From NCBI GenBank assembly GCA_963663405.2, contig CAXXSM010000023.1, positions 18,417 to 82,416 on the forward strand: a stretch of DNA of 64,000 bases, read 5' to 3'. This DNA is from a bacterium. Lineage in GTDB: Bacteria; Hinthialibacterota; Hinthialibacteria; Hinthialibacterales; Hinthialibacteraceae. The translations under genes and the position numbers were made by a program. Below the pieces are notes generated by a model that saw nothing but the letters and a program-made list of their open reading frames with translations, made no database searches and was not told the DNA's origin. Shown here in pieces: positions 441-51,151 of this stretch; the first letter of the stretch is position 1; each line of letters begins with the position of its first letter.

Positions 441-527
441 TAATGAGAACTGAATTTCTGAGAGTTTCTCGTTCGCGATTTCTCCAGCGATTCATTTTCA
501 TCTGCAGGTTGTGATCTCACTGATGAT
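441..527 (-). repeat. ~90-bp fixed-spacing inverted-repeat element, copy A
   Basis: Arms 490-501 and 443-455 enclose 34 bp; leader GAGATCACAACCTGCAG present. Confidence 0.8.
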
Positions 528-647
528 TTATATGTGGATGCGATGATCCTTGGTTCTTTAACTGGTCGCGAATGGAACCAAGGGGAGCGAATCGCGAAAC
601 CGGCCACGCGGAGCATATTCCCTAAATTCTATGAGGGCTGAGGAGGG

Positions 648-1250
648 ATGGCTGTGCGTGAGAATGAATGGTATCAACGAAAATCGAGCCGGGAATCTCA
701 GGTTATTCGTCCGCTTTGTTGTTTCCGGTGCCAAATGCCATTAAAAAAGAATAAAAACAATCGATTAAACTGGTTTACTGAACAGAGATATAAGAAGAAG
801 TTATTTTGCCCGGCTTGTGAAAAACGAGACCGGTTTCTACTCGCTCATGTCAATGTCTGCATTCGTCTCTATGGGGGGATGATCTCTTTGCATGACATCA
901 TTGATCTATACGACAATCAGGAACGGATCGAGAAACTCTATTTTGACCCATTCGCGGATGTGCGCGGCCTTTACAAAGGGAGAGACAAACTCTGCATACA
1001 CGACATTCATGGATGGGTGGAGGATGGCGCGATCTTTAAAACCTGGAACTCGAAATTGACCAATAGCGCGGTCAAAGCCCGTGAGGAAATCCAATTACAG
1101 CAGAAACTTCTTGAGGAGAGGAAAAAAGCGGTCGAGAAGATCTGTGTGGATGTGGATGGCGCTGAAGAGGATGAGAAGGAATCGCTTTCCCGTCTGCGGG
1201 AGAGTGGAGGGGCTTCTATGGGGAAACATCGTTGGATCGCTGGGCGGTGA
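648..1250 (+). CDS. hypothetical protein with a putative zinc finger (CxxC...CxxC)
   Basis: 200-aa ORF with RBS GAGGAGG; motifs CFRC and CPAC; charged coiled-coil C-terminus. Confidence 0.7.
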   Translation: MAVRENEWYQRKSSRESQVIRPLCCFRCQMPLKKNKNNRLNWFTEQRYKKKLFCPACEKRDRFLLAHVNVCIRLYGGMISLHDIIDLYDNQERIEKLYFDPFADVRGLYKGRDKLCIHDIHGWVEDGAIFKTWNSKLTNSAVKAREEIQLQQKLLEERKKAVEKICVDVDGAEEDEKESLSRLRESGGASMGKHRWIAGR

Positions 1251-1423
1251 TTGGGTGGAGGTTTAATGGAGACAGGCCAAGCGAAAAAATGAGATTGCGC
1301 ATGGTTTAATTGTACCTTTGTCTATAGATCTTTTTTTGAATCACGGATGGCGCGGATGGAGATGGATTACATCGCGGAAGATAAATCGTGGTTTTCGCGC
1401 TTCTTTTTTTGAAACTGATAAAT

Positions 1424-1669
1424 GTAGGATGAGCTAAAAACGAAGAACAGTAGGATGGGCTAAAAGCGAAGCGTAGCCCATCATTTCTTCTACGGATATT
1501 GTACGGGGATATGTTCGATTGATCACGGGCGGGGACGCCCGCGCACCCGCACCGCAAACCATAAAAGTATAAGGTGGGCTACGCTTCGCTTTTAGCCCAC
1601 CCTACAAAATTTTAGCCTCATTGTGCGGGGATGTGTTGGATTAATCACGGGCGGGGACGCCCGCGCTCC
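1424..1669. repeat. BIME-like cluster of REP family 1 (GTAG-type) and family 3 palindromes
   Basis: GTAGGATGGGCTAAAAGCGAAGCGTAGCCCATC at 1450-1482 and an inverse copy at 1573-1605, alternating with a ~45-bp direct repeat ending ACGGGCGGGGACGCCCGCGC (about 1500-1545 and 1622-1669). Lies between convergent genes. Confidence 0.85.
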
Positions 1670-1689
1670 ATTATCTTCACATTTCCTTT

Positions 1690-2193
1690 TTATAGACTAG
1701 GCTCTATCACTCGCTCAATGATCCCTGTTGTTGAGTGGCCGTCTTTTTGGACTAGGTATAGTTTTCCGTTGTTGCGTTCTAAGATTGGGGCCTCGATCAA
1801 GTCGGTTCCATACGTGTTGTCTTTAACGTGAACATCAGGCTTCACCTCTTCGACAAACCGCAGGCTTTCCGGCTCATCGAAAATCAGCGCCATGTCCACA
1901 TAGCGTAACGCCCGAAGCATCACCGCCCGTTCCTCTTGCGGAACGATGGGGCGGAGTTCGCTTTTGTATTGCTTCACCGATTTGTCGCTGTTCAGACCGA
2001 CAATAAGAAAATCCCCCTGCTCTTTGGCTTCGCGCAGTAACCGCTCATGGCCGACATGGATAATATCAAACGTCCCGTTCGTCGTCACAATCTGTTTGCC
2101 TTCGCTTCGCAGACGCTCTAATACAGGCAGCCATTTCTCTTTTTCGTCAATGTGAAAGATCATACTATCCTCATTTTGTAATTGATTAGCCAT
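1690..2193 (-). CDS. rfaE2: D-glycero-beta-D-manno-heptose 1-phosphate adenylyltransferase (RfaE domain II / HldC-like)
   Basis: TNGTFDIIHVGH (HIGH motif), LIVGLNSDKSV, RPIVPQEERA, HSTTGII. Confidence 0.9.
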   Translation of the reverse strand: MANQLQNEDSMIFHIDEKEKWLPVLERLRSEGKQIVTTNGTFDIIHVGHERLLREAKEQGDFLIVGLNSDKSVKQYKSELRPIVPQEERAVMLRALRYVDMALIFDEPESLRFVEEVKPDVHVKDNTYGTDLIEAPILERNNGKLYLVQKDGHSTTGIIERVIEPSL

Positions 2194-2320
2194 TTGATGT
2201 AATCGATTCCTTTCTTGAGTTTGGGGGAGAATACGCTTTTTTGATAATTTTTACGGTTCATCCGGTAATTGAATAAAAAATCATTTTGGAGAATTGCGAT
2301 CTTTGTTCAGGATGGCTTAA

Positions 2321-2428
2321 TTGTCTGAACCATGATTCTAAAGATTATAGGATTACCATGATTTTAAAATCAAGAAAATCAAGTAAGACAGCGCCAGCTG
2401 GCTGGCTTTTTAATCAAGGTTCAGATAA
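2321..2428. repeat. inverted-repeat element, family 5 (TTGTCTGAA...TTCAGAYAA)
   Basis: TTGTCTGAACCATGATT pairs with AATCAAGGTTCAGATAA (15/17); related to 12108-12250. Confidence 0.65.
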
Positions 2429-2447
2429 TAAGGATCCTGCATAGAAC

Positions 2448-2506
2448 TGTAGGAGGGGCTAAATACCGGCGCTTGCGCCGGAGCCTTAAGCGAAGCGCAG
2501 CCCATC
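2448..2506. repeat. REP family 1 copy with a nested family 4 hairpin
   Basis: GTAGGAGGGGCT-[AAATACCGGCGCTTGCGCCGGAGCCTT]-AAGCGAAGCGCAGCCCATC. Confidence 0.8.
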
Positions 2507-2827
2507 ATTTCTAAATAACTTGTTGTCTATTCCCGTAAAACGAGAAATCATTATAGAATCAAAACTAGAACACGCAATGAGACTACCCATAGAATTCCTC
2601 CCACTGAACTATCCCAAACGCGACTTCGTTCATGGATTCGGCTTACGCAAAAGTTCTATATCCCTTCACCCGCGTGGCTTAGTTTCTACAATATCATGAG
2701 GCGCGCGGCGCGGAGGTTGACCGGGGCTAGTTATGTGAAATTCCGGTTTCCTATAGGCCCCGCCGCATGCGGTTTTCGGCGCCGTTTCGCCGAACCGCCG
2801 CCAATCTATTTATAAAAGGTAGTGGAT

Positions 2828-3661
2828 ATGGTATTTCAACTGACGCGCGATTTAAACGAGTTGAAGACAATCGCCAATCAAATTCGGATACATGTCGTTC
2901 AAATGCTGGCGAAAGCCGGTTCGGGTCATCCCGGCGGTTCCCTCTCCGCGGCGGATATTGCGACAGCGCTCATGTTCGGCGTTATGCGGCATGATCCCCA
3001 AAATCCCAAATGGGCGGAACGGGACCGGTTTATTATGTCCAAAGGACACTGCATCCCCGTTTGGTACGCCGCTCAGGCGATCGCGGGATACTTTGATGAA
3101 GAGGAATTGATGTCGCTGCGGCAGCTGGGATCGCCGCTGCAAGGCCACCCGGACCGCGTGCGGCTTGACAGTATTGAAGCTTCCACCGGCTCACTCGGTC
3201 AAGGGCTCTCCATCGCGCTCGGACAGGCGCTGGCGGCGAAAATGAATAACGCTGATTGGCGCGTCTACTGCATGATCGGGGATGGAGAAGCGCAGGAAGG
3301 CCAAATCTGGGAAGCGGTACTGGCCGCGGGGAAATTCAAATTGAACAATTTGACCGCGATCCTTGATAACAACAACGGCCAGATCGACGGTTATGTGGAA
3401 GATGTGATGCCGCTCATGCCGATCGGCGATAAATGGAAAGCCTTTCATTGGCATGTCATCGAAATCGACGGTCACGATTTAGATCAGATCTTTAATGCTC
3501 TCGATGAAGCGAAAACAATTGAAGACCGCCCCACTTTGATCTGGGCCAAAACGATCAAAGGAAAAGGCGTGTCTTATATGGAAAACAACATCGGCTGGCA
3601 TGGGAAAACGCCGAATGAAGAGGAATTGAAACAAGCGCTCATCGACTTGAAAGCCGTCTAA
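2828..3661 (+). CDS. transketolase, N-terminal (TPP-binding) subunit
   Basis: GSGHPGGSLS, RDRFIMSKGH, LQGHP, STGSLGQGLS, TPP motif GDGEAQEGQIWEA. Confidence 0.95.
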   Translation: MVFQLTRDLNELKTIANQIRIHVVQMLAKAGSGHPGGSLSAADIATALMFGVMRHDPQNPKWAERDRFIMSKGHCIPVWYAAQAIAGYFDEEELMSLRQLGSPLQGHPDRVRLDSIEASTGSLGQGLSIALGQALAAKMNNADWRVYCMIGDGEAQEGQIWEAVLAAGKFKLNNLTAILDNNNGQIDGYVEDVMPLMPIGDKWKAFHWHVIEIDGHDLDQIFNALDEAKTIEDRPTLIWAKTIKGKGVSYMENNIGWHGKTPNEEELKQALIDLKAV

Positions 3662-3708
3662 ACGATTGCGCCAATCGCACACAATCAGGAAAGGTATGGA
3701 AAGATATT

Positions 3709-4648
3709 ATGGCGAATAAAGCATCCCGTCTCGCGTTTGGAGAAGCGCTGGCCGCCTTGGGTGAAACTCATCCCGAAATCGTCGCGCTCGACGCGGACTT
3801 AAGTAAATCCACTATGACTTGTCTGTTCGCGGAAAAATTTCCCGAACGATTCTTTGAATTCGGTATTGCGGAAGCCAATATGATCGGCGCCGGCGCCGGT
3901 CTGGCGCTCGAAGGGAAAATCCCATTCGTCTGCAGCTTCGCCTGCTTCATCACGGGACGTTACGACACCATCCGCATGTCATGCGGCTATTCCGAAACGA
4001 ACGTCAAGATCGTCGGCACCCACGCCGGGATCGGTATCGGTGAAGACGGCAACAGCCAGATGGGTTTGGAAGATATTGGTCTGATGCGCGGTCTGCCCGG
4101 ATTCACTGTCATTCAACCCGCGGACGAAATCGAGACGAAACAGGCGATCGCATTCGGCGTTGAACACAAAGGTCCGGTCTACTACCGGTTAACGCCGCCA
4201 AAAACTGCCTGATGTCAACGGTGAAGACTATCAATTCGAAATGGGAAAAGGGGTCGAACTCGCTCCTGGTTCCGATATGACCATTCTCGCTACCGGCGGC
4301 ACGGTATCCCACGCGCTTCGGGCTAAAGAAATCCTGGCGGGCGACAAAATCAACGCCCGGATTGTCAACATCCATACGATCAAACCGATCGACGTGGATT
4401 TGATCGTTCGCTGCGCGAAAGAAACGAAGTGCCTCCTCACCGTTGAAGATCACAACATCATCGGCGGATTGGGAAGCGCCACAGCTGAAGTCCTCTGTGA
4501 ACACCACCCGGCGCCATTGAAACGCTGGGGGATCTTGGATACTTTTGGACAATCCGGCGGCGAGAGAGATCTCTATAAGGCGTATAAAATAGACAGCGAA
4601 GGAATCGCTGAAACAGCGGCGGGCTTCTACCGAAAAGTTACCGGGTAG
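3709..4648 (+). CDS. transketolase, C-terminal subunit (one frameshift near 4195)
   Basis: DADLSKST, FGIAEANM and GPVYYRL in 3709-4212; TIKPID and VEDHNIIGGLGS in 4241-4648. The two frames join into one normal protein. Confidence 0.9.
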
Positions 4649-4654
4649 CGCAAT

Positions 4655-4870
4655 GGAGCGCGGGCGTCCCGCCCGTGAAACAAACGTGATGGTCAATTAT
4701 CTGGGTAGCAAGGGGAGGGCTTTTTTCTCTTCTTTTTTAATTTCTGGAAGGACGCCAGGGCAGAAAAAAGTAAAGGCTCCGGCGCAAGCGCTGGTATTTG
4801 CCCTGGGCGCCCGTCGTGAAAAAACAGATGAAATCCATGGATACCCAGGGCAAGGCGTAGTCTGCCCTGG
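4655..4870. repeat. cluster of family 3, family 2 (with nested family 4) and inverse family 2 palindromes
   Basis: GGAGCGCGGGCGTCCCGCCCGTG at 4655; CCAGGGCAGAAAAAAG-[module]-TTGCCCTGGGCGCCC at 4755-4812; CCCAGGGCAAGGC...TGCCCTGG at 4844-4870. Confidence 0.8.
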
Positions 4871-4886
4871 TTTTAACAATCACTAA

Positions 4887-5567
4887 ATGAAGAATGAAAT
4901 AATCGTGACCTCTTCCGCAGTCAAATTACAAGCCATAGTTGGTGAATCGCAGATTGCCCGATTTCATGAAGATGTCTCGCCGACCCTTTATGATGAATGT
5001 CTGTCAAGCAATGACGCTTTGCGCCATTCAGAAGATACCCTTCACATCCAATCCTTGGATGAAGCGATCGCGTTAGCGCAGACAGAAGGTCCTATATCCG
5101 CAAACCGGATTCTTCTTGATTGGCGGCGTTTTGACGGACGGTTTTCTGAGTGGTTGATCTATCTCGCGCCTGCGCTCTACCGTTGGATTGGACGCGAATT
5201 CGCTCTCATTCTGCCTGAAGACAGATCTCCCACCAAAATCATCCCCGCTATTGCGGATTTGCTCCGCTCGTTGGAACTGCGATCACGTGGAATTCGTATT
5301 ATCTCCTGCCCCACCTGCGCCCGTTGCCGGACGAATTTCCCAGTTATGGTTAAATCGATCGAAGACCGGCTGGCCGCAATTGATAAAACGCTGGATGTCG
5401 CCGTCATGGGATGTGAAGTCAACGGTCCCGGAGAGGCGAAAGCGGCTGATATAGGTATCGCTTTCGGAGACCGGAAGGGAATGCTCTTCAAACGGGGCGA
5501 ACCCATACGGACTGTCAACATCGAAGACGCGGCGGATGTGTTACTCAGCGAAATTGAAAAACTATAA
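4887..5567 (+). CDS. protein with the IspG C-terminal [4Fe-4S] domain but no intact TIM barrel
   Basis: ISCPTCARC and VAVMGCEVNGPGEAKAADIGIA match the IspG cluster domain. Only 226 aa; the N-terminal IspG motifs are absent. Confidence 0.75.
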   Translation: MKNEIIVTSSAVKLQAIVGESQIARFHEDVSPTLYDECLSSNDALRHSEDTLHIQSLDEAIALAQTEGPISANRILLDWRRFDGRFSEWLIYLAPALYRWIGREFALILPEDRSPTKIIPAIADLLRSLELRSRGIRIISCPTCARCRTNFPVMVKSIEDRLAAIDKTLDVAVMGCEVNGPGEAKAADIGIAFGDRKGMLFKRGEPIRTVNIEDAADVLLSEIEKL

Positions 5568-5763
5568 TGTCTTGATTTCCTTTCTCTTCCGAAAAATCAG
5601 AACAAAAAATGTACATTTCCTCTATTTTTTGCTATATTCCTGTAATATATTGAGAAGTAGCCTTGGATAAGAATTCGCATTACGCCACCCATCTAGCCAA
5701 GGCTGTTTCTGTTGCGATTAAATATATGAGTAAATCTGTCTGAAATAGAATAAGGGAGGAATC

Positions 5764-7353
5764 ATGAAACGAATCGCCCGTATTCTTGCCATTTTCTTTA
5801 TCGTATTTCTCATGCCTTTATTTGGAGGCGGCTCTTCCGGCTGGACGTTTGAAAAACCGGAACGCATCGTCAATTTCAAAAAAGACAAAAAATCGACGAC
5901 ATCCGAACGAGACGTAAAAGCGTTTCAAAAAAAGGCAAGCACGTCAATAAAAAGGAATGTGAAAGCCTTCCAAAGAAAGGCCAAAACTTCTCAACAGAGG
6001 GATGTCAGAGCTTTCCAAAGAACAACAAGCGTCACACAATCAAGAGATGTGAGCGCTTTTCAGAGGAAAGCGACTCCCGTACCCACTCGGGATGTGAGAT
6101 CCTTTCAAAGAAATGTTACTCCCATCCCCACTCGGGATGTGAGATCTTTTGAACGAAAGGTGACCCCTTTACCCACTCGAGATGTGAGATCCTTCCAAAG
6201 AGAAGCCCCCCGTTTCCCCGTCAGGGATGTGAGCGCTTTTGAACGAATTAGTTCTCCCGGTGGTTCCGGCGAAAGTACAACTGGAGGTCAGGGCGATTCT
6301 GGAACACCGAGTGATGGTGGAGTATCGGACCAGGGAACGGGAAGCAAACCAAACCGCAGCCAACAATATAGAGAAGCATTCGAACCGGAAAATTACCGGG
6401 AACGTTTTCAATCTGAAAACTATCGCAGTAACCGCTCCCCCTATGGTTTCACCAATCAACAATTGCGATCCGGTTTCAGATACCGGAGTCGATACTATCC
6501 CAATGGAAGATACGCGAGAGATACCAATCCATCTTTGGAACCGGATGACGGGGACCGGGATTATTTGACTGGGGATCAGAGCCAGACGGATACGTCCGGA
6601 GCCGAAACGCAAAGCCAGTCCCGCGTATACTGGAAACCGCCAACGCCGCAGTGGATGATGGATTACAACCGCCTGCCTCCAAAAAATACGGGAAATCAAC
6701 CGCTTCAGATCCCGCAATACATCCCCCCGTTGAACGGGCAATATGGAGCGCCTCAAACCACCCCATCGGACAAAGAACAGGCGGACGAGGATCAACCGGC
6801 GGATACTCCACCGCCTGATTTGCAGAAGGGGGACAAAATCGACGAATCCGCATTGGATTCGGCGAAAGACAATTCTGAAGAAGCGGATTCTAGGGCCGCG
6901 GCACAATCTTCCAACAATGCGGAGTCAAACGCGCAAACGTTGAGCGCTAAAGACGAACTCGAACTGGGAAAGAGTTTAACTCCCGCCCAGCGGCTTGCTC
7001 GCAGCGGCGATTCTATGTTCGAACGCCGGCTTTATTACAAGGCTATCAGTCAATACGAAAGCGCGATGATCCACGATCCGGATGACCAAGATATCGCCAT
7101 TCGAGCGGCGCTGTCGCAGTTCGCCGCGCGCAAGTATACCACAGCGGGAGGAACGCTGCGGAAAGCGATGGGCGAGACTCCCGATTCCAACCGGATCTCA
7201 AAAATCGCGCGCGAACTCTATCCCTCAGCCAAAGAATTCAACCAGCATCTTTCCCGATTTTCCCTCCGAAGAAAGAGCAACAGCGATTCAAACATGGATT
7301 ATCTCGATCGAGCGCTGTCACAAGTCCATATTTCGGGTGATGAGGAGAAATAA
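5764..7353 (+). CDS. exported protein with eight 15-aa repeats, a disordered linker and a C-terminal TPR
   Basis: RBS AAGGGAGG; signal peptide MKRIARILAIFFIVFLMPLF; RDVRSFQR repeats; TPR-like GDSMFERRLYYKAISQYESAMIHDPDD. Confidence 0.8.
   Translation: MKRIARILAIFFIVFLMPLFGGGSSGWTFEKPERIVNFKKDKKSTTSERDVKAFQKKASTSIKRNVKAFQRKAKTSQQRDVRAFQRTTSVTQSRDVSAFQRKATPVPTRDVRSFQRNVTPIPTRDVRSFERKVTPLPTRDVRSFQREAPRFPVRDVSAFERISSPGGSGESTTGGQGDSGTPSDGGVSDQGTGSKPNRSQQYREAFEPENYRERFQSENYRSNRSPYGFTNQQLRSGFRYRSRYYPNGRYARDTNPSLEPDDGDRDYLTGDQSQTDTSGAETQSQSRVYWKPPTPQWMMDYNRLPPKNTGNQPLQIPQYIPPLNGQYGAPQTTPSDKEQADEDQPADTPPPDLQKGDKIDESALDSAKDNSEEADSRAAAQSSNNAESNAQTLSAKDELELGKSLTPAQRLARSGDSMFERRLYYKAISQYESAMIHDPDDQDIAIRAALSQFAARKYTTAGGTLRKAMGETPDSNRISKIARELYPSAKEFNQHLSRFSLRRKSNSDSNMDYLDRALSQVHISGDEEK
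5896..6258 (+). repeat. coding tandem repeat, 8 x 45 bp
   Basis: R-(D/N)-V codons start at 5908, 5953, 5998, 6043, 6088, 6133, 6178 and 6223 (exact 45-bp period). Confidence 0.9.
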
Positions 7354-7443
7354 AGGTTAACGGTATGCCATCCTGGGGGGGAATATATGCGGGCGGGACG
7401 CCTGTGTTACTCATCTAATATTTAAAAATGGTCAGGAATTACG

Positions 7444-7476
7444 CCAGGGCTGAAAAAAGCCTTGCCCTGGGTACCC
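7444..7476. repeat. REP-like family 2 palindrome
   Basis: CCAGGGCTGAAAAAAGCCTTGCCCTGGGTACCC. Confidence 0.8.
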
Positions 7477-7499
7477 ACCCGCATCTGGAGAATCTAAAT

Positions 7500-8282
7500 A
7501 TGGCTTGGACAAAAGAATCTGCGATTAGAGAAATGGAGTCATTAATCAAAGAGGCTCAAAATGTCGCTAATTATGACAAAGCATCGCCCGAATTTTCACG
7601 CTGGTATCTTAATGTATCCATTTTTCTTGAAGAGATATTTGGAGGATCATCCAAAATCGTTCTATCGTTTCGTAAATTAAGGTTTTATCCTTCGGGTTCT
7701 TTTGTTATTCAATCTTTTGATATTCAGGGAGCTTTAAATGAAAGGAATCATGGCGCTTTTATTGATGACCTCAATCTAAGTATTGGAATCATTCAAGCGG
7801 GTATTGATGAACTTTCTCGCAAATCTCTGAGTGAAGTATATCAAGGAAAAAATACTCCAAGAGAGTCAAGTATGTTAATTCGAGTTCTCTCATTAGCAGA
7901 ATATAAGATACGGAAAACAATACGAGATATACCGGCGAATGAAAAAGAAATACAAGATGCGTTCGAGAATTTATTAATTGGAGCTGATATCCCTTATAAA
8001 CGTGAACATCCTCATATAACTTATTCTTCAAAAGAGTATATTCCTGATTTCTCTTTTGAGAGAATTGATCTTGCGCTTGAAGTTAAATTTTGTGCACGAA
8101 AGGACAGAGAGAAGAAAATCATAGCCGAGATGAATGATGACATAATGGCATACAAGACAAAATTTGGAAATATAGCTTTCTTAATCTATGATGTCGGAAA
8201 GATAAGATTAATCGGGTTGTGCTATCAATGGCCGTCCAGATCCATGTCCGCCCATACTCCTTTTCCAATTCTTCTTCGCTAA
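7500..8282 (+). CDS. PD-(D/E)XK nuclease domain protein (REase DpnII/MboI-like C-terminus); 3' end replaced by an IS1 remnant
   Basis: ATG at 7500 after GGAG; EKEIQD...IPDF...LEVK...DDIMAY...FLIYD; AT-rich; the last ~25 codons read through IS sequence. Confidence 0.65.
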   Translation: MAWTKESAIREMESLIKEAQNVANYDKASPEFSRWYLNVSIFLEEIFGGSSKIVLSFRKLRFYPSGSFVIQSFDIQGALNERNHGAFIDDLNLSIGIIQAGIDELSRKSLSEVYQGKNTPRESSMLIRVLSLAEYKIRKTIRDIPANEKEIQDAFENLLIGADIPYKREHPHITYSSKEYIPDFSFERIDLALEVKFCARKDREKKIIAEMNDDIMAYKTKFGNIAFLIYDVGKIRLIGLCYQWPSRSMSAHTPFPILLR

Positions 8283-8489
8283 CACTTTTCTTTTTTTTAC
8301 AAAGGTCCAGAGTTCGTCCAGTTGGACCTCGGTCATCTGGAGGGAATGGAGTAAATTGGATAAAACCAAAGCACAGTGTTCACCGGCGCGAAGGATGACT
8401 CGGTTCACTGTGTCTTTATCAAGATTCAGTAATCGAGACGTAGATCTTTTCAAATCAGAATTTAGCCAAAGAGATGACGTCTTAATCAA
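8200..8489 (-). mobile_element. IS1-family transposase remnant
   Basis: HTH LNLDKDTVNRV, then VQLDELWTFVKK, an A8G slippery run at about 8290-8298, and EYGRTWIWTAIDSTTRLI in the shifted frame. No terminal repeats recognised. Confidence 0.75.
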
Positions 8490-8718: not shown

Positions 8719-8741
8719 TGCGGGCGGGACGCCCGCGCTCC
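8719..8741. repeat. family 3 palindrome
   Basis: GCGGGCGGGACGCCCGCGCTCC just downstream of hpnE. Confidence 0.75.
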
Positions 8742-8753
8742 ATTGGCTCTCAT

Positions 8754-10927: not shown

Positions 10928-10974
10928 GCGCTCCGCTCCTGGATGATGATCCAGCCTCGATCTCCGGTCGAGTA

Positions 10975-16820: not shown

Positions 16821-18287
16821 CTACTCTATTTCGACAACGACTCTCTGGTATCTCGTTAATGGTGGGGCGCCGTTATCCGTTACTTCACAAATGATATGGA
16901 TGGTTTTTCCTTTTGGGGCATCGCTTGGCACAGTAAACAAGGCATCCTGTTTATCGACATTTTTTATCTCGATGTCGCCATCATAAGTGTCTGCCTCTCC
17001 ATACCGCCACCAGCGGTAAGTCAATTTGTCTGCATCCGGATCAGTTGTTCCTTCTGCACTGAATTTCACTTTTACTCCCGGCTTGACTTGAAGATCATTC
17101 GCATGAGTAAGTTTGACGACTGGAGGATGATTGGCGTCTTCATAGGATTTTACACACCAGTCTGCCCGCGCCGCGAAATCATTCTGAATTACATCAATCC
17201 AGCGCCACTGAGGTTTGAGATACGCAGTGAGTTTCTCATCGTTCGGGATATCCTCCTTCACACGCTTGCGCCCCCACGCCGAACTTCCATACCAACGGCC
17301 TGTTGGATACTCGTACCCAGGTTCCTGTACAGGATCGAGCCATGTGTTATCGCGTACATTAACAAAACGGCCACCCCAACCGCCCCAGCCTGGCGATTCC
17401 GCGCTGCGCAAGCCAGTCGGTATGACGTGCAGAAACGAAGGCGAGTCACCCTCGGACCGGAAACGCCCACCATCGTGCGCTTTGTACAAGGCAAGCAGAG
17501 GACCGTGGTCCTGCAGGAGATTTTGGTTCATCCATTTCGCGGAATAGTAACGCTTCATTTCCTGAGAGATCTCCCTCCTCTGATGGTCGTACGCCATAGC
17601 GATGAACTGGTCGGAAATGATGGTGGGAATGTTGTACTGTCCCCAGTTTGGACGGATATAGTCTTGGTAAGTCGAATCCTGTTCCCAAATAAAATAGAAT
17701 CGTATCTTGTTCGCCACATAGACCATTTTTTCCGGGTGTTCTTCTTCAATGGTTTTGAGGGCTCTAGCGATTGTGTTAGGACCTCCCCAGGCTTGTAGCC
17801 AGATGGGGCGGTCATCCGATTCATCCAATAAGACTTTGGCTATATGCTGTGAACCAGGAGTGATTTCATCCATCTCTCCCTCTGATTTCACATTCCCTAA
17901 AAATGTGCGTTCTTGCAGATACTCCGGTGTGGGATACCGGCTGTCATGCTTCACTAAATTTGGATAGACCTTTTTATAAGCACTCAAGTAAGGTTGAATC
18001 CAATCATCCCCAACCCAATTGTGTCCATGCGAATGATATTGAGAACTCGAAGTGACAATCCCTTCGATATCCCATTCATTGGCATAAAGTAAAAACCGGA
18101 CCATAGAACACTCGTCATCGATTTCACCGTCACTTGTAACGATCACTCGTGGCTTCTTAGCTGTGGCAGTATTGTGACAAACGTCTATTAAGACAGCAAC
18201 CAGAAAAAATAGTAATACACTCATTTTATATAAAAATGAGTTTCTAAGGTTTACTCGTTTAAGATTTCTCTCGCAACTCATTATCAT
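16821..18287 (-). CDS. DUF1593 (nucleoside-hydrolase-like) secreted protein with a C-terminal Ig-like domain
   Basis: PRVIVTSDGEIDDECSMVRFLLYANEWDIEG, WGGPNT, SEGDSPSF, GGWGGRF, ANHPP, EVTDNGAPPLTRYQRV. Confidence 0.88.
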   Translation of the reverse strand: MIMSCERNLKRVNLRNSFLYKMSVLLFFLVAVLIDVCHNTATAKKPRVIVTSDGEIDDECSMVRFLLYANEWDIEGIVTSSSQYHSHGHNWVGDDWIQPYLSAYKKVYPNLVKHDSRYPTPEYLQERTFLGNVKSEGEMDEITPGSQHIAKVLLDESDDRPIWLQAWGGPNTIARALKTIEEEHPEKMVYVANKIRFYFIWEQDSTYQDYIRPNWGQYNIPTIISDQFIAMAYDHQRREISQEMKRYYSAKWMNQNLLQDHGPLLALYKAHDGGRFRSEGDSPSFLHVIPTGLRSAESPGWGGWGGRFVNVRDNTWLDPVQEPGYEYPTGRWYGSSAWGRKRVKEDIPNDEKLTAYLKPQWRWIDVIQNDFAARADWCVKSYEDANHPPVVKLTHANDLQVKPGVKVKFSAEGTTDPDADKLTYRWWRYGEADTYDGDIEIKNVDKQDALFTVPSDAPKGKTIHIICEVTDNGAPPLTRYQRVVVEIE

Positions 18288-18290
18288 TTT
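18224..18290 (-). repeat. fixed-spacing element core, copy I (overlaps the DUF1593 start)
   Basis: Arms 18276-18287 (ATGATAATGAGT) and 18230-18241 enclose exactly 34 bp. Confidence 0.75.
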
Positions 18291-26286: not shown

Positions 26287-26372
26287 AATATAAAACTGAA
26301 TCTCGAAAACGAGCGCATCCGCAGTTACCGCCGCGACTCATTTTCATCTGCAGGTTGTGATCTCGATCATGA
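26287..26372 (-). repeat. ~90-bp fixed-spacing element, copy B (upstream of mreB)
   Basis: Arms 26336-26347 and 26290-26301 enclose 34 bp; leader CATGATCGAGATCACAACCTGCAG. Confidence 0.8.
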
Positions 26373-26706
26373 TGAATTACTAGAAAGTAACACATACTAT
26401 TATGACGTTGATCAATCACTCCACCTTCAATCCTTCGCTGGATATTTTTTTATAATACTTAAAACAAAATCGATAGTACATTATTTCTCGAAAGAGACTT
26501 AACAATCATCCTATTCCGCTAAAGATAATACCTTGAAAACATGATTCCTATAAGTCATAACGCATAAAAAACAATAGTGCGATCAAACTCTTCACAATAA
26601 TGTTTGTTATGGTCAATCAATATTCCCCTCGCTTACGATATCGTATAGTATTATAATGGCGTTGTTACGTTAGTTCTGGTAAAAATATAATTCTATTCTG
26701 TTTTTC

Positions 26707-30566: not shown

Positions 30567-30760
30567 ACTCTGTCCTTATGTACGAAAATGAGGCGTCTTA
30601 ATGAGGAGCCAATTTCGTGAATCATTCCCGGTGGGTCGATTAAACGTGACCCACCCTACCGCTCTGACAGCAACAGTATAGCATCAGAAAGTCATGAAAA
30701 ACCAAATCAATCGTGACTGGGAAAGAATATAAAGGAACACGGCTGGATTGTCAACAGCAA

Positions 30761-42751: not shown

Positions 42752-44892
42752 ATGGCTAAGATTCCCCCAACTCGTAATTGACATTGGGCAAGATCGAATC
42801 AAAATCCTTCAAGTCCCGCTCTTCGAAAAAGGGCGTACAAATCGTGAAGGCGGGCAGTAAAACCGATACTGCTTCCTCCCAATGCGGAAGCGGATGTGAT
42901 TCAGAAGCACATACAAGAGACGCTTCCGATTCTCTTGCAGGAGTTGAGTATCAAAGAGAATCGGGCGATTGTGACATTGCCAGGGGCGCGCGGCGTTTAC
43001 CCGCCGTTTAAAAATACCTGTTGTCCGCGGCGGTCAATTAGAACGCATTGTCAAGTATGAAGCCCGTCAGCATATTCCATTTCCTCTCGATCAAGTCAAT
43101 ATGGACTATAAAGTCTTTACTCCGGCGGGGGATGGCGGGCAAGCCGATCAGTCGGAATTGGAAGTCCAGCTTGTGGCGGTCCGTAAAGAAGTGGCGGATA
43201 CGTACGCCGCGATTTTGAAGAAATGCAAAATCCGCGCGGATATCATCGAAGCCGCTCCGATCTCCATTTACAACGCATACGCCGGCTCACTCAAGCGTGA
43301 TCCGGAGGAAGTGACGGCGCTCATTTCCATCGGCGCGTCGGGCACGGACATTGTGGTCGAGCAAAATGGCTCGATGCAATTCATGCGGAACGCTCCCGAG
43401 GCCGGGTCTTCGTTGACGACGGCTCTTGCAAAAAACTTAGAAATTCCATTTGATAAGGCGGAAGAGCTGAAGACCAAACCCGCGCCGGACTATTCCCAGG
43501 AAGAGGGGGAAGGCGGTTCCATTACAGCGGATAAAGTTTCTGCGATTTTGGAAAAAGGTTTCGAGCGGATCGCAACAGAAATCCGCCGGTCGTTTGACTT
43601 CTATGTTTCGCAATCGGACGCGATGCCGGTGACCCGTGTCTTTCTCTCCGGTGGAAGTTCGAAGATGGAGGGGGTCACGGACTTCTTGAGTGAGCGTCTT
43701 GGCGTTCCCGTGGAACTGTTTGGACGCGAGTGATGTCGAATGCGTCGAAATCCCGGCGGAATATGAAGAGAGCCTCCGGGGGGAAGCTTCATTAATCGGG
43801 ATGGCGATACGCGCGGCGGGTCAGGCGGTTTGCGCGCTCAGTTTTTCACCGGAATCGACGAAGATGCGGCTGGAACTGGAACGCCGGTCGCCGATGCTGG
43901 GTCTGATGGCGGTTTTGTTGGTGGCGATCTGTGGTCTTTCGATCTACTGCCTGCAGTTATTGGTGGAATCGCATCGGAGCGCGGTCGCGCAGGTGAATGA
44001 GATCATTTCACCCCGGTGTGGACGCCGCGCCCGAATTGACCCGTGTCCGTGGGGGAGCAGAAGGAATACGACGAGCGGATCGAACGGATTCAAAAAGTCG
44101 CGGAAAAGCGTGGTGGATTGACTCGTGTTTTCCTGGAAATCCAACGGTTGGTGCCCCAGGATATTTGGCTGGAAAATATTGCGATGACCAGCAAGAGCAT
44201 GACCATTAAAGGGCGGGCGCTGAATGACGAGAAAATATCGACGTATCTGCAGAACCTTTCCATGTCCCCCTTCTTTGAAATCAACGCGGTTGTGGCGACG
44301 GATGTGAGTGTGGCGGCGGGGACGACGGGAAGCGGGCAGTCGCAGATGGACTTCACGATCGAGATTCTTCAATTTAACGATCCCACGGAACAGGAAGTAA
44401 AATTTGTTGAAGAATTCCGGAAAGAGACCCAGGATCAGGATATTTCTGTTCTTCTCGTCCGTTTCGACCGGGCAGGGATCTATGGATCCTGATGCGCCGG
44501 CGAAGCTCATCGTCGGTCTGTACAGGCCGGAAGATGACAATGAAAAAATACTCATGCTCAATAAAATATTCACCGCTGTGAAAAAGGCGGAGGATGAAAC
44601 GATCCAGAAAGTGGAATTGCGTTTTCACGATCGGGAAAGCAATGAAGTGGAACGCAACGTCGTAACGAAAGAACTCTATACGCGGTATAATGACCGGCAG
44701 CTTGACAAACCGGGTTTCATCCAGGAATTTGAAATCCAGACACCGCCTCCAAGCCCCACACCTTCGCATACGCCCACGCCGGAATTGGAAGAGGGTGAGA
44801 GCAGAGGCATGGGGATGTACGGCATGGGGATGTATGGCATGGGGATGTACGGCATGGGCATGGGTGGGATGATGGCCCCCGGTGGTGGATGA
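42752..44892 (+). CDS. pilM: type IV pilus PilM-PilN fusion protein (multiple frameshifts)
   Basis: VIDIG, QHIPFPLD, LVAVRKE, EIRRSFDFY, FLSGGSSK and IGMAIR run directly into a TM segment and the PilN motifs VPQDIWL, IKGRA, SPFF; ends in GMGMY repeats. Confidence 0.7.
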
Positions 44893-44905
44893 TCGTAGTA
44901 ACCGT

Positions 44906-44990
44906 CAAGATTGTGAACACAGCAGCAAATGAAAATGAGTCGCGTGAGGAATTTAGAGCGAGTAAGCCTCTAAAACTCAATTTCATATAA
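44906..44990 (+). repeat. ~90-bp fixed-spacing element, copy C
   Basis: Arms 44929-44940 and 44975-44986 enclose 34 bp. Confidence 0.8.
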
Positions 44991-45062
44991 TTGAATGTGA
45001 AATGCCGCTCGTGATTGGAATGATAAACCGCGCGCAAACTGAACAACAGAGGGAGTATTACG

Positions 45063-46637
45063 TTGGCTCTTTCCATAGACAAAGAAGCGTTACTCGAATT
45101 TTTAGGTAAAAATAAAGATCCCCTTTTTGTATCGATTCTGGCATTGATTCTTGTTGTGGGAGGCTGGTTTCTCTATCAGCAGAGTTCCCAAACCGCAGGG
45201 CAGATCATCGATCCACTGCTCAAACAGGATGATCGGTCAGGACGGACAGGCGGCGCCGGTGGGACGGCGCAGGCGAAAGTGACTGCGGAGCAAGTCGTTG
45301 GGATGCTGCTGGACAAGCGGAATCAAGAAGTGTATTCGTCGCAGCGGAACCCATTTGGCTCACCAGAAGATCAGCTCCGCATGCGTCAGGAAGTCCAGTC
45401 CGTCTATGATCGCGCTGTAAACTATTTTAAAAATAAAGACTACGAGGCTGCGCTTACAGAATTCGATAAAGTGATCGCGCTTGATGTCACTGAGACTCGG
45501 ATCCCCTATCCCGTCACTCCCTCTGAGTACAAACTCCTCGTCACGCAACAGAATTTGAAGGAGAATTTGGATAAAATTCTCCAGAATGCGCAGACCGATA
45601 TCGCGGAAGGTGACCGCCTGGCCCAATCGGGGAACGCCAAAGGGGCGATGGAAGTGTATGAGCGCGCCAATGATAATCTGATGACCGCGATCAATTCCGA
45701 TCCGGATGGGAAAGTAGTGGGCGAGGAGAGTATCAATAAAGTCAAACAAATTCAGCAGACTGCGTTTCAGAAATATGTGACGATTCGCGGGCAATCCTTG
45801 AAACAAGAATACAATTTGGCGATCAATCAATCCCAACAGATTTTGGGAGGATCGGATTATATAGAGATGCTGCGCGTTCTGAACAGTCTCGTATTGATCC
45901 AGAGCGCCATTAATTCTGTTGATCCAAACGCGCAGATTATTGCCCGCGAAGAACGAACTCGTTTGGGCCGGTCAGCAGATGAGATGGTTAAAAAACTGCA
46001 GGATAATTTTACATCTTTGACCGATCAGGCGAAGCGGCAGTTCGAACAGGCGTTGTCAGAGAACGATCCTCAAAAGACAAAAGAGGCAATTACGGTATTG
46101 CGGAGCGCAGCGTCGTTTAATCTGAAAAATGACGCCGCCGCGAAAACATTGAAAGAGACGATTTCCTCGTTCGTCAACCGCCGTGCGCAGCTCGTAATTA
46201 AATTGAGCAACGCGTTTGCCGCGGAACAAGAGACTCTTTTGAATGAAGGCAATTATGAACAATTCAAAGAGCAGGCTAAAAACCAATATGTCGCGGAATT
46301 GAAGAACTTGAAAGAAGCCGGCGCGGCGCTCGATCTAACCACGAGGAAAGATCTTGACGACGCGTTAGTTAAAGTCAACGGATTGAAACTGCCTCCACCG
46401 GTCACGGATAGCTATTTCGTCAAGAATGTGACCCGTTCCTCCGGCAATAATTATAAATTTGAAGTGACAGATAAAACGGGGACGAGTCCGAAACCGCGGA
46501 TCTTCCGGCTAAAAGAAGGCGCCCGGGACCGGACAACTGGAATAACTCTTAAACAAGTTGACACAGACCAGGGCTTTGTTATACTTTCCAAACCTAAGTA
46601 CCTCGATGCAAAAGTGAACATTACTTCTTCGAATTAG
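45063..46637 (+). CDS. membrane-anchored TPR protein in the PilO/PilP position
   Basis: TTG start after GAGGGAG; single TM; RNPF motif; TPR AVNYFKNKDYEAALTEFDKVIALD; beta-rich C-terminus. Confidence 0.7.
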   Translation: MALSIDKEALLEFLGKNKDPLFVSILALILVVGGWFLYQQSSQTAGQIIDPLLKQDDRSGRTGGAGGTAQAKVTAEQVVGMLLDKRNQEVYSSQRNPFGSPEDQLRMRQEVQSVYDRAVNYFKNKDYEAALTEFDKVIALDVTETRIPYPVTPSEYKLLVTQQNLKENLDKILQNAQTDIAEGDRLAQSGNAKGAMEVYERANDNLMTAINSDPDGKVVGEESINKVKQIQQTAFQKYVTIRGQSLKQEYNLAINQSQQILGGSDYIEMLRVLNSLVLIQSAINSVDPNAQIIAREERTRLGRSADEMVKKLQDNFTSLTDQAKRQFEQALSENDPQKTKEAITVLRSAASFNLKNDAAAKTLKETISSFVNRRAQLVIKLSNAFAAEQETLLNEGNYEQFKEQAKNQYVAELKNLKEAGAALDLTTRKDLDDALVKVNGLKLPPPVTDSYFVKNVTRSSGNNYKFEVTDKTGTSPKPRIFRLKEGARDRTTGITLKQVDTDQGFVILSKPKYLDAKVNITSSN

Positions 46638-46875
46638 AACGGAACGGAGCAAGTTGTTACAGTCAATATTTAAATGACTTTATCTGAGAGCATAGAGGGG
46701 ATGGGTATGGATACAAAGGGCGCGCGCGCCGAGTAGGGTAATTGCCGCGTCCGTTGTGTCGAATGCAATTGTAACAAAAGAGTTCCTCATATTTTTGCAT
46801 GAGATGGAAAAAAGAGTAGCCGCGTCAATTGCCTGAAAGGGCCTTTATGTGGTAATATTCTTTTGTGTATAAACG

Positions 46876-46955
46876 ATCATGATGCGCAAATGAAAATGAG
46901 TTATGAGAGTAATCGCGTACGAGTAAGTTGTAGAAACTCATTTTCATATAAATAG
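46876..46955 (+). repeat. fixed-spacing element, copy D
   Basis: Perfect arms ATGAAAATGAGT 46890-46901 and ACTCATTTTCAT 46936-46947 enclose 34 bp. Confidence 0.85.
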
Positions 46956-47120
46956 GATTCAGCGCAATCGAAAAAAAACGATTGGCATTCCGTAAGCGTC
47001 CTTGTTCATTTGCCTAAACAAGCAAAAAAGCCGGACCAATGGGCTTAGTTAGGAAAACGGATGCGTCAGTGCGGATGTAACGTTTGAATCACGTCTTAGC
47101 CAATAATACGCATAGAAGCG

Positions 47121-47302
47121 ATCATGATTGAGATCACAACTGCAAATGAAAATGAGTTGTGGGAGTACTCGCGAATGAGAAAATCCTCTAAACTCATTTT
47201 TATATAAACTAGCATGATTGAGATCACAACCTGCAAATGAAAATGAGTCGTGGAAGAGATTGCGGAGAAGTATAGTTAACTAGACTCATTTTCAATAAAA
47301 AG
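47121..47302 (+). repeat. fixed-spacing element, tandem copies E and F
   Basis: E arms 47146-47157 and 47192-47203 (34 bp); F arms 47237-47248 and 47284-47295 (35 bp); head-to-tail. Confidence 0.9.
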
Positions 47303-47583
47303 GGACTAGGACACTTTCGTGGGGAGCCGCTCTTTTGATTGTTTTGGTTCCTATGAAAGCCATCCGCGAGGCGCATTCGCAGGTGGGCGTTGAAAGAATG
47401 TTGTGAACCATGCGAAACGTTCAAATCATTTCCGGCTTCTCTCGGCGGCGCCGTTCGCCGATTATGTATAAATAAAAGTGAGCACGTACGGATCGGTAAA
47501 TGGATCCGGGCGGGTTTACTTTGTGCGATGGAGCGTTATCACACCCGGCATAGTTCGGATAAAAAAACTAAGGAGTAATATAG

Positions 47584-50500
47584 ATGTTTTGTGCCCGACG
47601 AAGGATTCAACAGGATCTCCCCAAAACGATACAGAACACCCTGCGGACTCTCTGCGCAAGTTTTTTAGTTCTTGCAGGATGCCTGACGGCTCACGCTGGC
47701 TCGGTTTGGACTGGTGTCACTCCGTTGACCGCTTTCCAAGCGGCGGAAAAGGAAACGAAAACGGTCAAGAATCAGTGCCGCCATTTCTACAACTTGGGCC
47801 GCAAGGAAGCCAAAGCCGGCAATTACGAAAAAGCAAGAACGTATTTTCAACAGGTTCTGACGCTCGATCCTCAGCATCGCGGCGCGAAAAAAGAGATGCA
47901 GAAGTTGACCGAAGCCGGGATCTCCCTCGCTTCAGACGCCGCGGCGAATCCTGTGCTCACTTACAGCGATCTGACATCGGCGGAGCTTCTCGATACCGCC
48001 AAGGTTATGATGAAAGACGGTGATTATGAGACGGCGCAGACCGTGCTCGAGCAGGCGTTGGAGAAATCGAACGACGACAAAGAGCAACGCCAGATCCGCA
48101 GTTATCTCAGCGCTATGGGAAAAAAGCGGGGAACAGATAGAGCAGGTGCGGGAATCGGTTGTGAATTATAATCTTTCCGAACTTGAGAGACATCTGAAAA
48201 AAGGCATGGTTTACATGCAAAGCGAGCAGTTTGATAAAGCCGCCGTTGAATTTCAACGCGCGAAGATGATCGATCCAAACGATACTCGGGCGGATAAGCT
48301 TCTCGCGCAAGTCGAAAAAGCGCAAGGCGTCGTCGAACAGCAGACGATCGCGATGACGCAGCAGGCGGATGCGGCGAGAGTACAAGAATTAAGCGCCATC
48401 GCGGATGTTCTTTTTAAAGAAGGTCAGGATTTATACCGCGCCGGACAGATTATCGAAGCGGTGGCGAAATGGAATGAAGCCGTAGAGATTTGTCCCACCC
48501 ATCAAGCAAGTCAGACGTATTTGACAAACACGTTAGTGGAATACAAACAAGCGGTGAAGGCGAAAGAAGCGGCGGATAAAATGGCCGCTCAGGAAGCCAA
48601 ATATGAAGTGATGCTGGATACGGTGATTCCTCAGTACTCCACCTCCGGCCAATTGATCGATATTAAAGATGTTTTGAGCACGCTCAGCGCGTTTACCCAG
48701 CTTAATTTGGCGATGGACCAGAATTTGAAGGGGAACGTGGCGCTTGACGTGAAGAATAAACCTCTCCGGGATATCCTTAACATTGTCCAAAAACAATACG
48801 GTTATATTTGGTCGCGTGAAGGGGATACACTCTATGTCGAACCCGGTTTTGAATCCCGTGTGTTCCCATTGTCAGACGATCAGTACAAAACCATCGAATT
48901 GATTCTCAGCGATCCTTCATCACTCGAAGATTCCAGCCGAAACCTGAAGTCCATCCTTTATGGGCCGGAAGAAGAATTCAATGTTCCCGGCAAACAACTC
49001 TATCTCAACCTTCGCGCGCGGGCGTTGATGGTGACCGATACCGAAGAAAATCTTCGGAAAGTTGAATCCTTTCTTAAAGAAATGCCTTTGATCGTGGCTG
49101 AAAAGAAACCGGTCTCTTTCCGTACATTTAAACTCGGAAAAGATGTCGCGGTGGATTATTATGAAATCATCAAACTGATGCTCTTCGGTGAAAAAGGCGC
49201 TTATGACGTGTCGGATGAACGGCGTCAGTTGTTCCTTGAACCACGTTCTCATACCCTGCTTGTGAATGACTATCCTGAGAATATCCAAAAAGTCGAGGAC
49301 TTTCTAAATAACCAGTTGATCAACCGCAGTATTGAAGATGGGGATTTGATGGCCAAGGAATTCCAGATTTCCGACGTGGACGATGTTGAGGACACACCGG
49401 AAGCGGCGCTTCGCCGGGCGGAATTCATCACCAACGTCGCGCAGGTCATTGAGGATATGCTTTATGGACGGATTGGACGGGATGAGGCCGCTTTGCAAGG
49501 CCGGAAGATCTACACCAATCCCGATCGCGGCACAATCAGCATTGTTGATTCCCGCGCGAATATCCGCCGCGTTGAGGAATATCTTAACAGCATCAAGGGA
49601 GAGACCACGCAGGATATTCTGATTGAGTCGTTTCCGATTGAACACGTCAATGTGTATGATATCTCTGACGCGCTGGGGTATCTCTTCTTCGATTCACAGC
49701 AATCCACACGGAACCAGTTCCTGAGTGAAACTTCCTTCCAATCGATTGGAACGGATGAAACCGGTGGTTCGCAGGATATCAGTAACATCTTTGAACAAAC
49801 CTCCCGTGACCGGTTCAACCTGACCGGTGGCGGCGGCGGTGGAACCGACTTGCTGCAGTTCTTCTCGATCCGTTTCTTCCCGGATACCAACACCAACTCG
49901 CTGGTTATCTTTACGCCGGATGAAGAAGTGCTTTCACTCGTGTCGAAGGTCATCACGACGTTTGATAAACCGCAGAGAATGGTTGAATTGGAGCAGCGTA
50001 TCGTATCGGTATCCTTGACGGATATGCGGACCATCAACTTTGATTACATTCTCAGTAATCCGTTGATCGCCGATGAGATGGAATTGGACCGTCATTCCAG
50101 CACTTCGGATATGAGTTTAATTCAAGCCGGTGTGACGGAAACGACCGTCGAACCGGGTTTCCAATTCAACTTGCATACGGTCGGCGCGTCCCGTCTCGAT
50201 TTTATTATGAGCCTGTTGGAAAACACGGATAGTTACAATATTCTCAATCAGGCGAAAGTGATCGGGATTCCCGGCACGTTTGTCACGCCTCTTATGTTTG
50301 TCGGTCAGCAGATTCCATACGCCGATTCTGTTGATTTTGAGGATCAGGGGGACGATGATCCGACGAACAACCGGATGACCGCCGACTTCCAACGCGCGTT
50401 CGCGGGGACTACACTCGCCTTCCTCGCCTTTATTTTGAATGACGATCACGTTTACCTTGAATTGCGTCCTGAAATTATTGAAGCCGGTGATCGTGTTCCA

Positions 50501-50782
50501 GTTTCGATCACGGGTGAAGGTGACACATCAGGCGGCATACCGGATATCGGTCCCCTTCTGTTGAACCAGAAATCCATTCAGACCGCTGTGCGGCTAAAGA
50601 ATGGTGGAACCGTTGTCCTTGGTGGATTTATTGATGAAAAAGAGTCGGAAGCCACGAACAAGATTCCGATCATCTCAAAAATCCCGTTCCTCGGTAATCT
50701 ATTTACGGATCGCGCGGTCAGCAAATCGAAAACATCAACCCTTTGGTTCATTACCGTGCGTATTATTGAACCTGAATATTAA
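47584..50782 (+). CDS. secretin (PilQ/GspD family) with a long N-terminal TPR region (frameshift near 48125)
   Basis: AGGAG RBS; TPR repeats; N-domains (LMVTDTEENLRKVE, LLVNDYPENIQKVE); C-terminal TAVRLKNGGTVVLGG and KIPIISKIPFLGNLF. Confidence 0.88.
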
Positions 50783-50808
50783 GCCATTTTTATGAACGTA
50801 ATGAGCAT

Positions 50809-50848
50809 CGGGCAGGAGTGAATCTATCGCTCCTGCCCGTTTGATTTT
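50809..50848 (+). terminator. intrinsic terminator after the secretin
   Basis: CGGGCAGGAG/CTCCTGCCCG stem followed by TTTGATTTT. Confidence 0.8.
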
Positions 50849-50974
50849 ATTGTTGGTATATATGAAAATGAGTCGCGGCAGGGCGTCTCACGTTTTATCG
50901 GTCCACCGGGAATGATTCAGGAAATTGCCGCTTCATTAATATGCGATCCATCCTGCATGCTATCTTACAGGTTA

Positions 50975-51033
50975 AGGCGCCCTACGCTTCGCTTAATACT
51001 CCGGCGCGAGCGCCGGTATTTAGCCCACCCTAC
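50975..51033. repeat. family 1 palindrome with a nested family 4 module
   Basis: CTACGCTTCGCT-[TAATACTCCGGCGCGAGCGCCGGTA]-TTTAGCCCACCCTAC. Confidence 0.8.
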
Positions 51034-51063
51034 AGGATTCTTAATTTCATAGATAAATAATTC

Positions 51064-51151
51064 TGATTGAGATCACAACCTGCAAATGAAAATGAGTCGC
51101 GGAAGAGTTTGCGAATGAGATAGTTCTGGAGACTCATTTTTAAATAAATAG
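51064..51151 (+). repeat. ~90-bp fixed-spacing element, copy H
   Basis: Arms 51086-51097 and 51132-51143 enclose 34 bp; a solo arm also occurs at 50862-50878. Confidence 0.85.

Follow-up and report, generated by a model that had tools for sequence, protein, structure and literature searches.

A 91-bp repeat with fixed arm spacing and self-like insertion sites in a Hinthialibacterota genome: a candidate for rolling-circle spread

The window studied here is a 64,000-nucleotide stretch of contig C23 (CAXXSM010000023.1, positions 18,417 to 82,416), part of an 8.44-Mb, 82%-complete assembly of a bacterium of the Hinthialibacteraceae (GCA_963663405.2). Scattered through it are copies of a 91-bp repeat composed of a leader, a left arm, an interior and an inverted right arm. 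It is very probably a mobile repeat of some kind, and its ends, joins and truncations are consistent with rolling-circle transposition.

Copies in the window

The repeat occupies the following positions, some copies being combined with repetitive extragenic palindromic (REP) sequences bearing a GTAG tag:

444..529, minus strand: complete copy with left arm 490-501, a 34-bp interior and a decayed right arm (nhmmer E 8e-17)
18226..18289, minus strand: leaderless copy, arms 18276-18287 and 18230-18241 around a 34-bp interior, upstream of a Sde182/DUF1593-like gene (Pfam PF07632)
26287..26382, minus strand: complete, diverged copy, arms 26336-26347 and 26290-26301, upstream of mreB
30577..30659, minus strand: composite fragment, a GTAG-REP doublet followed by a right-arm remnant
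44894..44990, plus strand: complete copy with decayed leader, arms 44929-44940 and 44975-44986
46875..46951, plus strand: copy whose leader has an internal deletion, arms 46890-46901 and 46936-46947
47111..47207, plus strand: complete copy that leads a head-to-tail pair, with arms 47146-47157 and 47192-47203
47202..47300, plus strand: complete copy attached to the end of the preceding one; its interior differs and measures 35 bp, between arms 47237-47248 and 47284-47295
50857..50960, plus strand: leaderless left arm (50862-50873) followed by a GTAG-REP doublet
51053..51148, plus strand: complete copy downstream of a secretin gene, arms 51086-51097 and 51132-51143
51985..52035, plus strand: decayed left half, a leader-like stretch and an arm (52018-52029), read by eye and outside the hidden Markov model calls

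The arm pattern matches 29 times in the window compared with 10.0 +/- 3.2 times in shuffled sequence, and none of 100 shuffles reaches 29. Eight of these copies had been described in an earlier note on this DNA, and their number, strands and arm positions are all confirmed, as is an interior of 34 bp in seven of them and 35 bp in one; the composite fragment at 30577 was not in that list. The unit of about 90 bp is likewise real, but its extent had been drawn too short: ATAAA follows the right arm, and the start lies after a CATATA-like target. The leader is intact in five copies, whereas it is decayed or partly deleted in those first placed at 44906 and 46876 and absent from that at 18224. Two further arms, at 50862 and 52018, do exist, although they are not solo arms as had been thought; both belong to left halves that run into GTAG REPs, the second into a different one. 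The arm at 50862 is preceded by TATAT, the mirror of the right end. In the head-to-tail pair, the end motif of the first copy is common to the second.

The copy at 44894 starts just past a stop codon within a pilM-pilN-tetratricopeptide repeat (TPR) run. Of the neighbours named earlier, mreB and the DUF1593-type gene are borne out, while the PilB-like gene beside the copy at 441 is not: none of the genome's seven T2SSE genes lies on this contig, and the adjacent 200-aa open reading frame, which contains cysteine pairs, has no Pfam match. The gene on the other side of that copy reads like a flagellin N-terminus. A c-di-GMP-II-GAG riboswitch (Rfam RF03169, 52.6 bits) at 527-614 on the plus strand precedes the 200-aa frame and abuts the copy at 444-529, which lies on the opposite strand. 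Both pilM (43101-44121) and a transketolase C-terminal gene (3709-4648) appear as two open reading frames each and could be broken or reflect assembly errors.

The family across the genome

As the earlier note had proposed, a model was built from the copies and scanned in the genome and in relatives. The nhmmer profile, built from 132 copies and counting non-overlapping hits at E<0.05, identifies 273 copies in the source genome (196 complete, 65 left-only and 12 right-only) at 251 loci, of which 20 are tandem with a period of 90-92. No copy lies inside a called gene, compared with about 61% expected if insertion were neutral; the 6,556 genes come from a home-made caller, and overlaps with genes could be under-called. 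Copies are found in core operons, between rplB and rpsS and before ftsA, the former being two tandem copies in the ribosomal protein operon (C70:106940-107130; here and below, such labels denote contigs of the source genome). Convergent gene pairs are under-represented as sites, with 22 copies against 32-34 expected.

The family appears to be restricted in lineage. A profile search of 34 other genomes of the phylum, all from other genera, gave no match better than E 0.02, so that 'species-level' here means absent from the other genera searched. An exact arm-pair scan of 185,579 genomes returned a single locus, which lacks the leader, and the leader-arm pattern had no match in metagenome and viral contigs. 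A looser arm-pair scan returned at least 119 loci; among the matches listed none begins before model position 22, and thus none has the start of the leader. Plasmids and phages gave best matches of only E 0.3-0.9. Low-GC metagenome contigs carry a long palindromic repeat with the same arm word, spacers mostly of about 21 or 32 bp and no leader; the shared word is probably a coincidence. We found no description of the repeat in the open main texts of the literature, and a sequence index searched for look-alikes gave none.

The source genome also holds at least ten other small repeat families whose top 16-mers occur 15-100 times, among them CRISPR-like repeats and repeats phased around GxxExxY genes. 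A link between the latter and the 91-bp repeat was considered and discarded: the repeats are not alike, and within 600 bp of the three intact GxxExxY genes there is no copy.

The arms are far better conserved than the interior, yet the interior keeps its length: it measures 34 bp in 163 of the 181 measurable complete copies, and among inverted arm pairs within 150 bp of each other anywhere in the genome, 160 of 237 are spaced by 34 bp. The leader is 32, 33 or 34 bp long in 52, 85 and 19 of 164 copies, with two hot spots of variation. The interior sequence does vary, as had been noted, but does not drift freely, since about 13 of its 34 positions are at least 85% conserved. The mean difference between interiors is 12.5 of 34 sites, but only about 4 between nearest neighbours, which indicates that many source lineages have kept the length. 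Indels occur in the interior at 0.0033 per bp per copy and in the arms at 0.0009-0.0043; as these rates are similar, we rejected an additional constraint on interior length after insertion. The fixed spacing is real, but the step from there to a geometry selected for a host function is not needed, because REPINs are known to keep fixed arm spacings (71 and 110 bp) as well (PMC3116915). The suggestion that the interior is inverted by recombination finds no support, the interior being inverted relative to the leader in none of 136 copies.

The consensus begins and finishes with the same 8-bp motif, CATATAAA, and the two occurrences behave differently. In low-divergence copies the left CATATA is conserved at 0.57-0.89 (n=44) and the right CATATAAA at 0.87-0.98 (n=55), and the left motif fades outward once tandem copies are removed. 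Within a copy, the identity of left and right motifs is close to chance (n=124; the largest gap is 0.73 vs 0.66). Because the left motif is both weaker than the right and uncorrelated with it, we read it as a host target of about 6.5 bits that resembles the element's own end, and not as a duplication; in young copies the left motif deviates in about 10-40% and the right in 2-13%, which is not the signal of a target site duplication. At a diverged paralogous site (C130, 75-79% identity) the element is missing and the space suffices for a single core; this lends weak support to a single-core target and cannot prove it.

Since the target resembles the end of the element, insertion at the ends of resident copies is predicted, and the target profile alone predicts at least the observed number of tandem joins. 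Scoring was possible for 12 of the 22 tandem junctions. Unrelated interiors meet at 8 of them, differing at 10-18 of 34 sites (random pairs differ at 12.7 on average), and the other 4 are near-identical local duplications. Truncation is one-sided. Among 30 plain left-only copies 20 stop at model positions 42-51, around CAAATGAA, a motif of the left arm that matches the end motif at 6 of 8 positions.

The interior can be replaced. More than half of the left-only hits (35/65) run on into REP sequence, and 20 of these 35 regain the right end, giving composites with an arm spacing of 68-209 bp. A single GTAG-REP doublet family is coupled to the repeat: 33 of its 84 copies lie within 120 bp of an element copy, while seven other repeat families, of 45-128 copies, have only 1-4 copies each near the element. 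The doublet is physically built into 32 element copies. In 22 cases its centre shares the element's strand, in 1 it is on the opposite strand and in 1 on both. Shared composite junctions recur at unrelated loci. The longer composites are suggested, without being proven, to have moved as units, in which case 34 bp would not be strictly required.

Mode of spread

We consider it an even call that the 91-bp repeat spreads as a non-autonomous HUH-type element of the IS91-like, rolling-circle kind, a mechanism that we infer since neither a cognate transposase nor a clean empty site was found. An HUH-type enzyme would copy the unit as a single strand and join it behind a target that looks like the element's own end. 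The leader end would be the origin end, beside the target ttttCATATA|AAW (the exact cut within the motif is uncertain), and the arm stem would close the termination end. As the cut site there looks like the target, the end of a resident copy would offer a target in turn. Early termination at the look-alike CAAATGAA would produce left-only copies. Selection for mobility would be the main force that maintains the 34-bp spacing, as in REPINs, and a REP doublet may have entered the interior, the composite then spreading partly as a unit. The enzyme may have been lost, or may be absent from the assembly, which at 82% completeness could lack the partner transposase.

The genome does contain an element with comparable end logic. 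An integrase-plus-IS91 element (C12; C118:28164-32526) is present in 15 near-identical copies and 1 diverged copy; it is bounded by ATT on both sides and has a terminal arm, a subterminal inverted copy of the arm and a 41-nt hairpin tail, and one tandem self-insertion is seen. Its integrase gene seems to be split into two overlapping frames. A Mesorhizobium IS91-integrase locus (NZ_CP051294.1) shows a TTGGAC/GTCCAA arm layout as in this element.

Several observations weigh against rolling-circle spread. The arm-plus-tail layout occurs in only one of six plasmid IS91-integrase loci and is thus not a hallmark of that family. Searches for a partner gave no transposase with matching ends at 11 multicopy loci (all differ), no matching ends at Y1 loci, and none by eye in the flanks of IS110 and reverse transcriptase genes; the genome's Y2 element is unlike the repeat (its alignment scores of 24-26 compare with a median of 24 for shuffles), and none of the copies has a gene between its ends. 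No clean empty site was found among the 196 complete copies, and in the assembled contigs of four sequencing runs, one of which contains near-identical DNA, no listed joint removes one unit cleanly, the joints running between repeat copies. Slippage deletion of a hairpin between short direct repeats explains the stops near CAAATGAA equally well. A bias towards one replication strand is not clear (102 vs 73 for copies, 463 vs 385 for genes). Finally, variable interior sites are largely unlinked, all four combinations being present for 155 of 210 pairs of sites; this suggests extensive recombination or recurrent mutation, for which a plain copy-out model does not account.

An unlikely, though the best surviving, alternative is that the repeat belongs to a BIME/REPIN-like mosaic spread by a REP-associated tyrosine transposase (RAYT, a Y1 HUH enzyme), the 91-bp unit being the frame or a shrunken derivative of the GTAG-REP doublet. 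Shuffling by cleavage and strand transfer at C|T sites, which we hold to be unlikely to the same degree, would produce the mosaic. The coupling and shared strand of the doublet speak for it, as does the reassortment of leader variants against interior types; REPINs, too, show fixed spacing and tandem arrays (PMC3116915), and TnpA-REP is described as making mosaics (PMC3333891). However, the 196 complete copies have no REP hairpin and the end motif has no CT, and interiors are no more similar to REP spacers than chance (17.9 vs 17.3 +/- 1.3, not significant). Both Y1 genes of the assembly have other repeats at their flanks, and the element was not matched at any of 29 Y1 loci in relatives. One RAYT-like Y1 gene (C71:25149-25463) is flanked by a different palindrome family with about 100 copies in the genome.

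Somewhat less probable again is a double-stranded circle integrated by a tyrosine or IS110/IS1111 recombinase, with crossover inside the shared CATATAAA core. A core at both ends and self-insertion would also follow from recombination at the core, the genome holds 49 integrase-domain and 3 IS110 matches, and the arms start with ATG, which we take to recall the subterminal repeats of IS1111. Against this, the target resembles only one side of the junction, at the 6.5 bits given above, and one-sided truncation is not expected. The arms lie 33 bp apart across the junction, whereas IS1111 ends sit far closer; the IS110 flanks show no arms by eye. Nor do interior variants match the flanks (no signal in 106 copies), which speaks against a guide-like role.

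That the host selects the repeat as a regulatory module, with two inverted protein sites at fixed spacing (CRP, Fur or other) or an outward promoter before chosen genes, we regard as improbable. The well conserved arms would fit such a role, and 21 of 133 copies lie within 40 bp of a gene start. It had been claimed that each copy points along one adjacent gene, which breaks down for 66 of 271 copies genome-wide; what remains is a weak orientation bias, 183 of 271 copies facing a downstream gene start against 57% expected from target availability (p=0.0006), while 88 face a gene end. Downstream genes share no function: 67 genes start within 130 bp downstream of a copy, and of the nearest 60 that were scanned, the 39 with a Pfam match range from ribosomal proteins to antitoxins with no common theme. 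The module is also missing from every relative searched.

The proposed enrichment at pilus and secretin genes does not hold up. The secretin gene in the window has 5 copies within 5 kb and the six other secretins have none; the seven T2SSE genes lie 2.1-30 kb from their nearest copy. Among 66 gap-matched pilin-like genes, 4 have a copy upstream, against a background of 5.7% (p=0.79), although pilin-like genes with a copy within 500 bp number 11 of 92 against 6.5% of all genes (no formal test). At least four loci within 7 kb were reached in 153 of 300 random placements. The window is rich overall, with 7 loci against 2.4 expected, a value reached in 1 of 300 placements and equal to the highest 64-kb count in a genome where counts per contig are over-dispersed.

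Specific regulators fare no better. The leader had been compared to a CRP site, but CATGA makes up its left half in 74 of 136 copies, TGTGA falls outside the ten commonest forms, and no Crp helix-turn-helix domain (HTH_Crp_2) scores above cut-off in the 82%-complete assembly. Each arm presumably resembles a Fur box, and the genome has two Fur-family genes. We nevertheless rejected a Fur box, as no shared Fur-like or arm-like palindrome was present in 30 feoA loci of relatives, although the bacterial family may rely on another regulator. FeoA itself has no match in the source genome at its present completeness, yet 19 of 19 family relatives have one. Over the three copies that were tested, no sigma-70 promoter or terminator match was found.

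A structured RNA, acting in cis or as a small RNA, whose shape fixes a 34-nt loop is very improbable: the pair closing the interior covaries (TA in 85 and CG in 40 of 149, 12 of the CG cases outside the main subfamily; 43 double changes vs 18.8 expected) and top-strand interiors fold 2.3 kcal/mol better than shuffles, but the arm stem is all that the consensus fold contains, none of the Rfam families matches a copy, and orientation in tandem gene pairs is 88 vs 66. The same signal is explained by a single-stranded DNA hairpin or by template switching, which perfects inverted repeats without selection (PMC5941160) and hence can produce stem compensation. Template switching probably also lies behind the few leaderless copies that are symmetric.

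Relation to known elements and meaning

Of the three natures first proposed for the repeat, a MITE-like one (miniature inverted-repeat transposable element) comes nearest, although the accompanying check for a transposase with matching ends found none. Classical MITEs such as RUP, BOX, ERIC, Correia and Nezha are likewise short, non-coding, AT-rich, hairpin-forming and nested with other repeats, and the modular interior recalls BOX (PMC3184786, PMC3049150). Unlike theirs, the arms are not terminal, with a 32-34-bp leader outside the left arm and only a few leaderless copies being symmetric; there is no duplication signal, no DDE insertion sequence with shared ends among the 11 multicopy loci, and a shortage of copies between convergent genes. 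REPINs and BIMEs share with the repeat a species-level distribution, extragenic sites, hundreds of copies, a fixed arm distance, tandem arrays and mosaics (PMC3116915, PMC3333891, PMC8266576); in contrast to them, its arms have no palindrome, hairpin or GTAG/CGTC tag, its leader is asymmetric, its target is self-like and it flanks no RAYT. The repeat thus does not qualify as a classical MITE, a REPIN, an invertible switch or a CRP site. Integron attC sites are marked by R''/R' boxes, a G ahead of the cassette and a crossover at G|TT. An attC cassette was rejected as well, since A or T stands next to the arm end in 109 of 126 copies and no paired R box is seen by eye.

The rules at the ends are closest to those of IS91 and IS801. 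IS91 members make no duplication, have subterminal palindromes and insert beside a short target similar to the terIS cut site (PMC13181058), and IS801 yields miniature fragments of 229, 360 and 679 nt that retain the ori end and stop at cryptic look-alike motifs (PMC3189936). The repeat resembles them in its lack of target duplication, in a target at one end that looks like the cut site of the far end, in subterminal palindromes and, less certainly, since slippage deletion predicts the same, in truncated copies that keep the target-adjacent end and stop near a look-alike motif. It differs in its 91-bp size, 273 chromosomal copies, long arms that pair across the element and a graded AT-rich target of 8-12 bp instead of a tetranucleotide; no parent element was found.

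A further parallel comes from HINE/DINE-1, the animal non-autonomous Helentrons, which have subterminal arms of 12-15 bp, lying 2-4 nt away from one end and at a distance of 38-60 bp from the opposite one, a 3' palindrome, a T-rich target and no target modification (PMC4067079). Read on the minus strand, the repeat has a near-terminal arm and an inverted subterminal arm, then a tail of some 30 nt that folds a weak hairpin, and a T-rich target, a rough fit that extends to inverted arms of 12-13 bp. The host, however, is bacterial, the tail extends about 30 nt past the arm and no Rep/helicase partner is apparent; the two are compared by layout, a relation in sequence not being expected, and the match is an analogy, not membership. 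We tentatively raise the idea, which we think somewhat doubtful, that the repeat is a bacterial counterpart of HINE/DINE-1: a high-copy 91-bp rolling-circle element with TATA-like targets resembling its own end, mixed tandem arrays and a loop that serves as a swappable slot for REP-doublet cargo.

Small bacterial repeats are mostly MITEs, with terminal repeats and duplication, or REPs, linked to RAYTs; on the features tested, the 91-bp family fits neither. Its fixed arm spacing and the local cluster at pilus genes are no evidence of a regulon. In role it is an ordinary repeat, and what is unusual are its ends, which follow rolling-circle rules, and its cargo slot. If the mechanism holds, the repeat would be a minimal 91-bp substrate for HUH transposition and would offer REP doublets a route for hitch-hiking, and it would be a source of insertions at promoter-like AT-rich sites, even in ribosomal and cell-division operons. 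Should it prove to be a bacterial counterpart of HINE/DINE-1, it would link two classes of single-strand mobile DNA.

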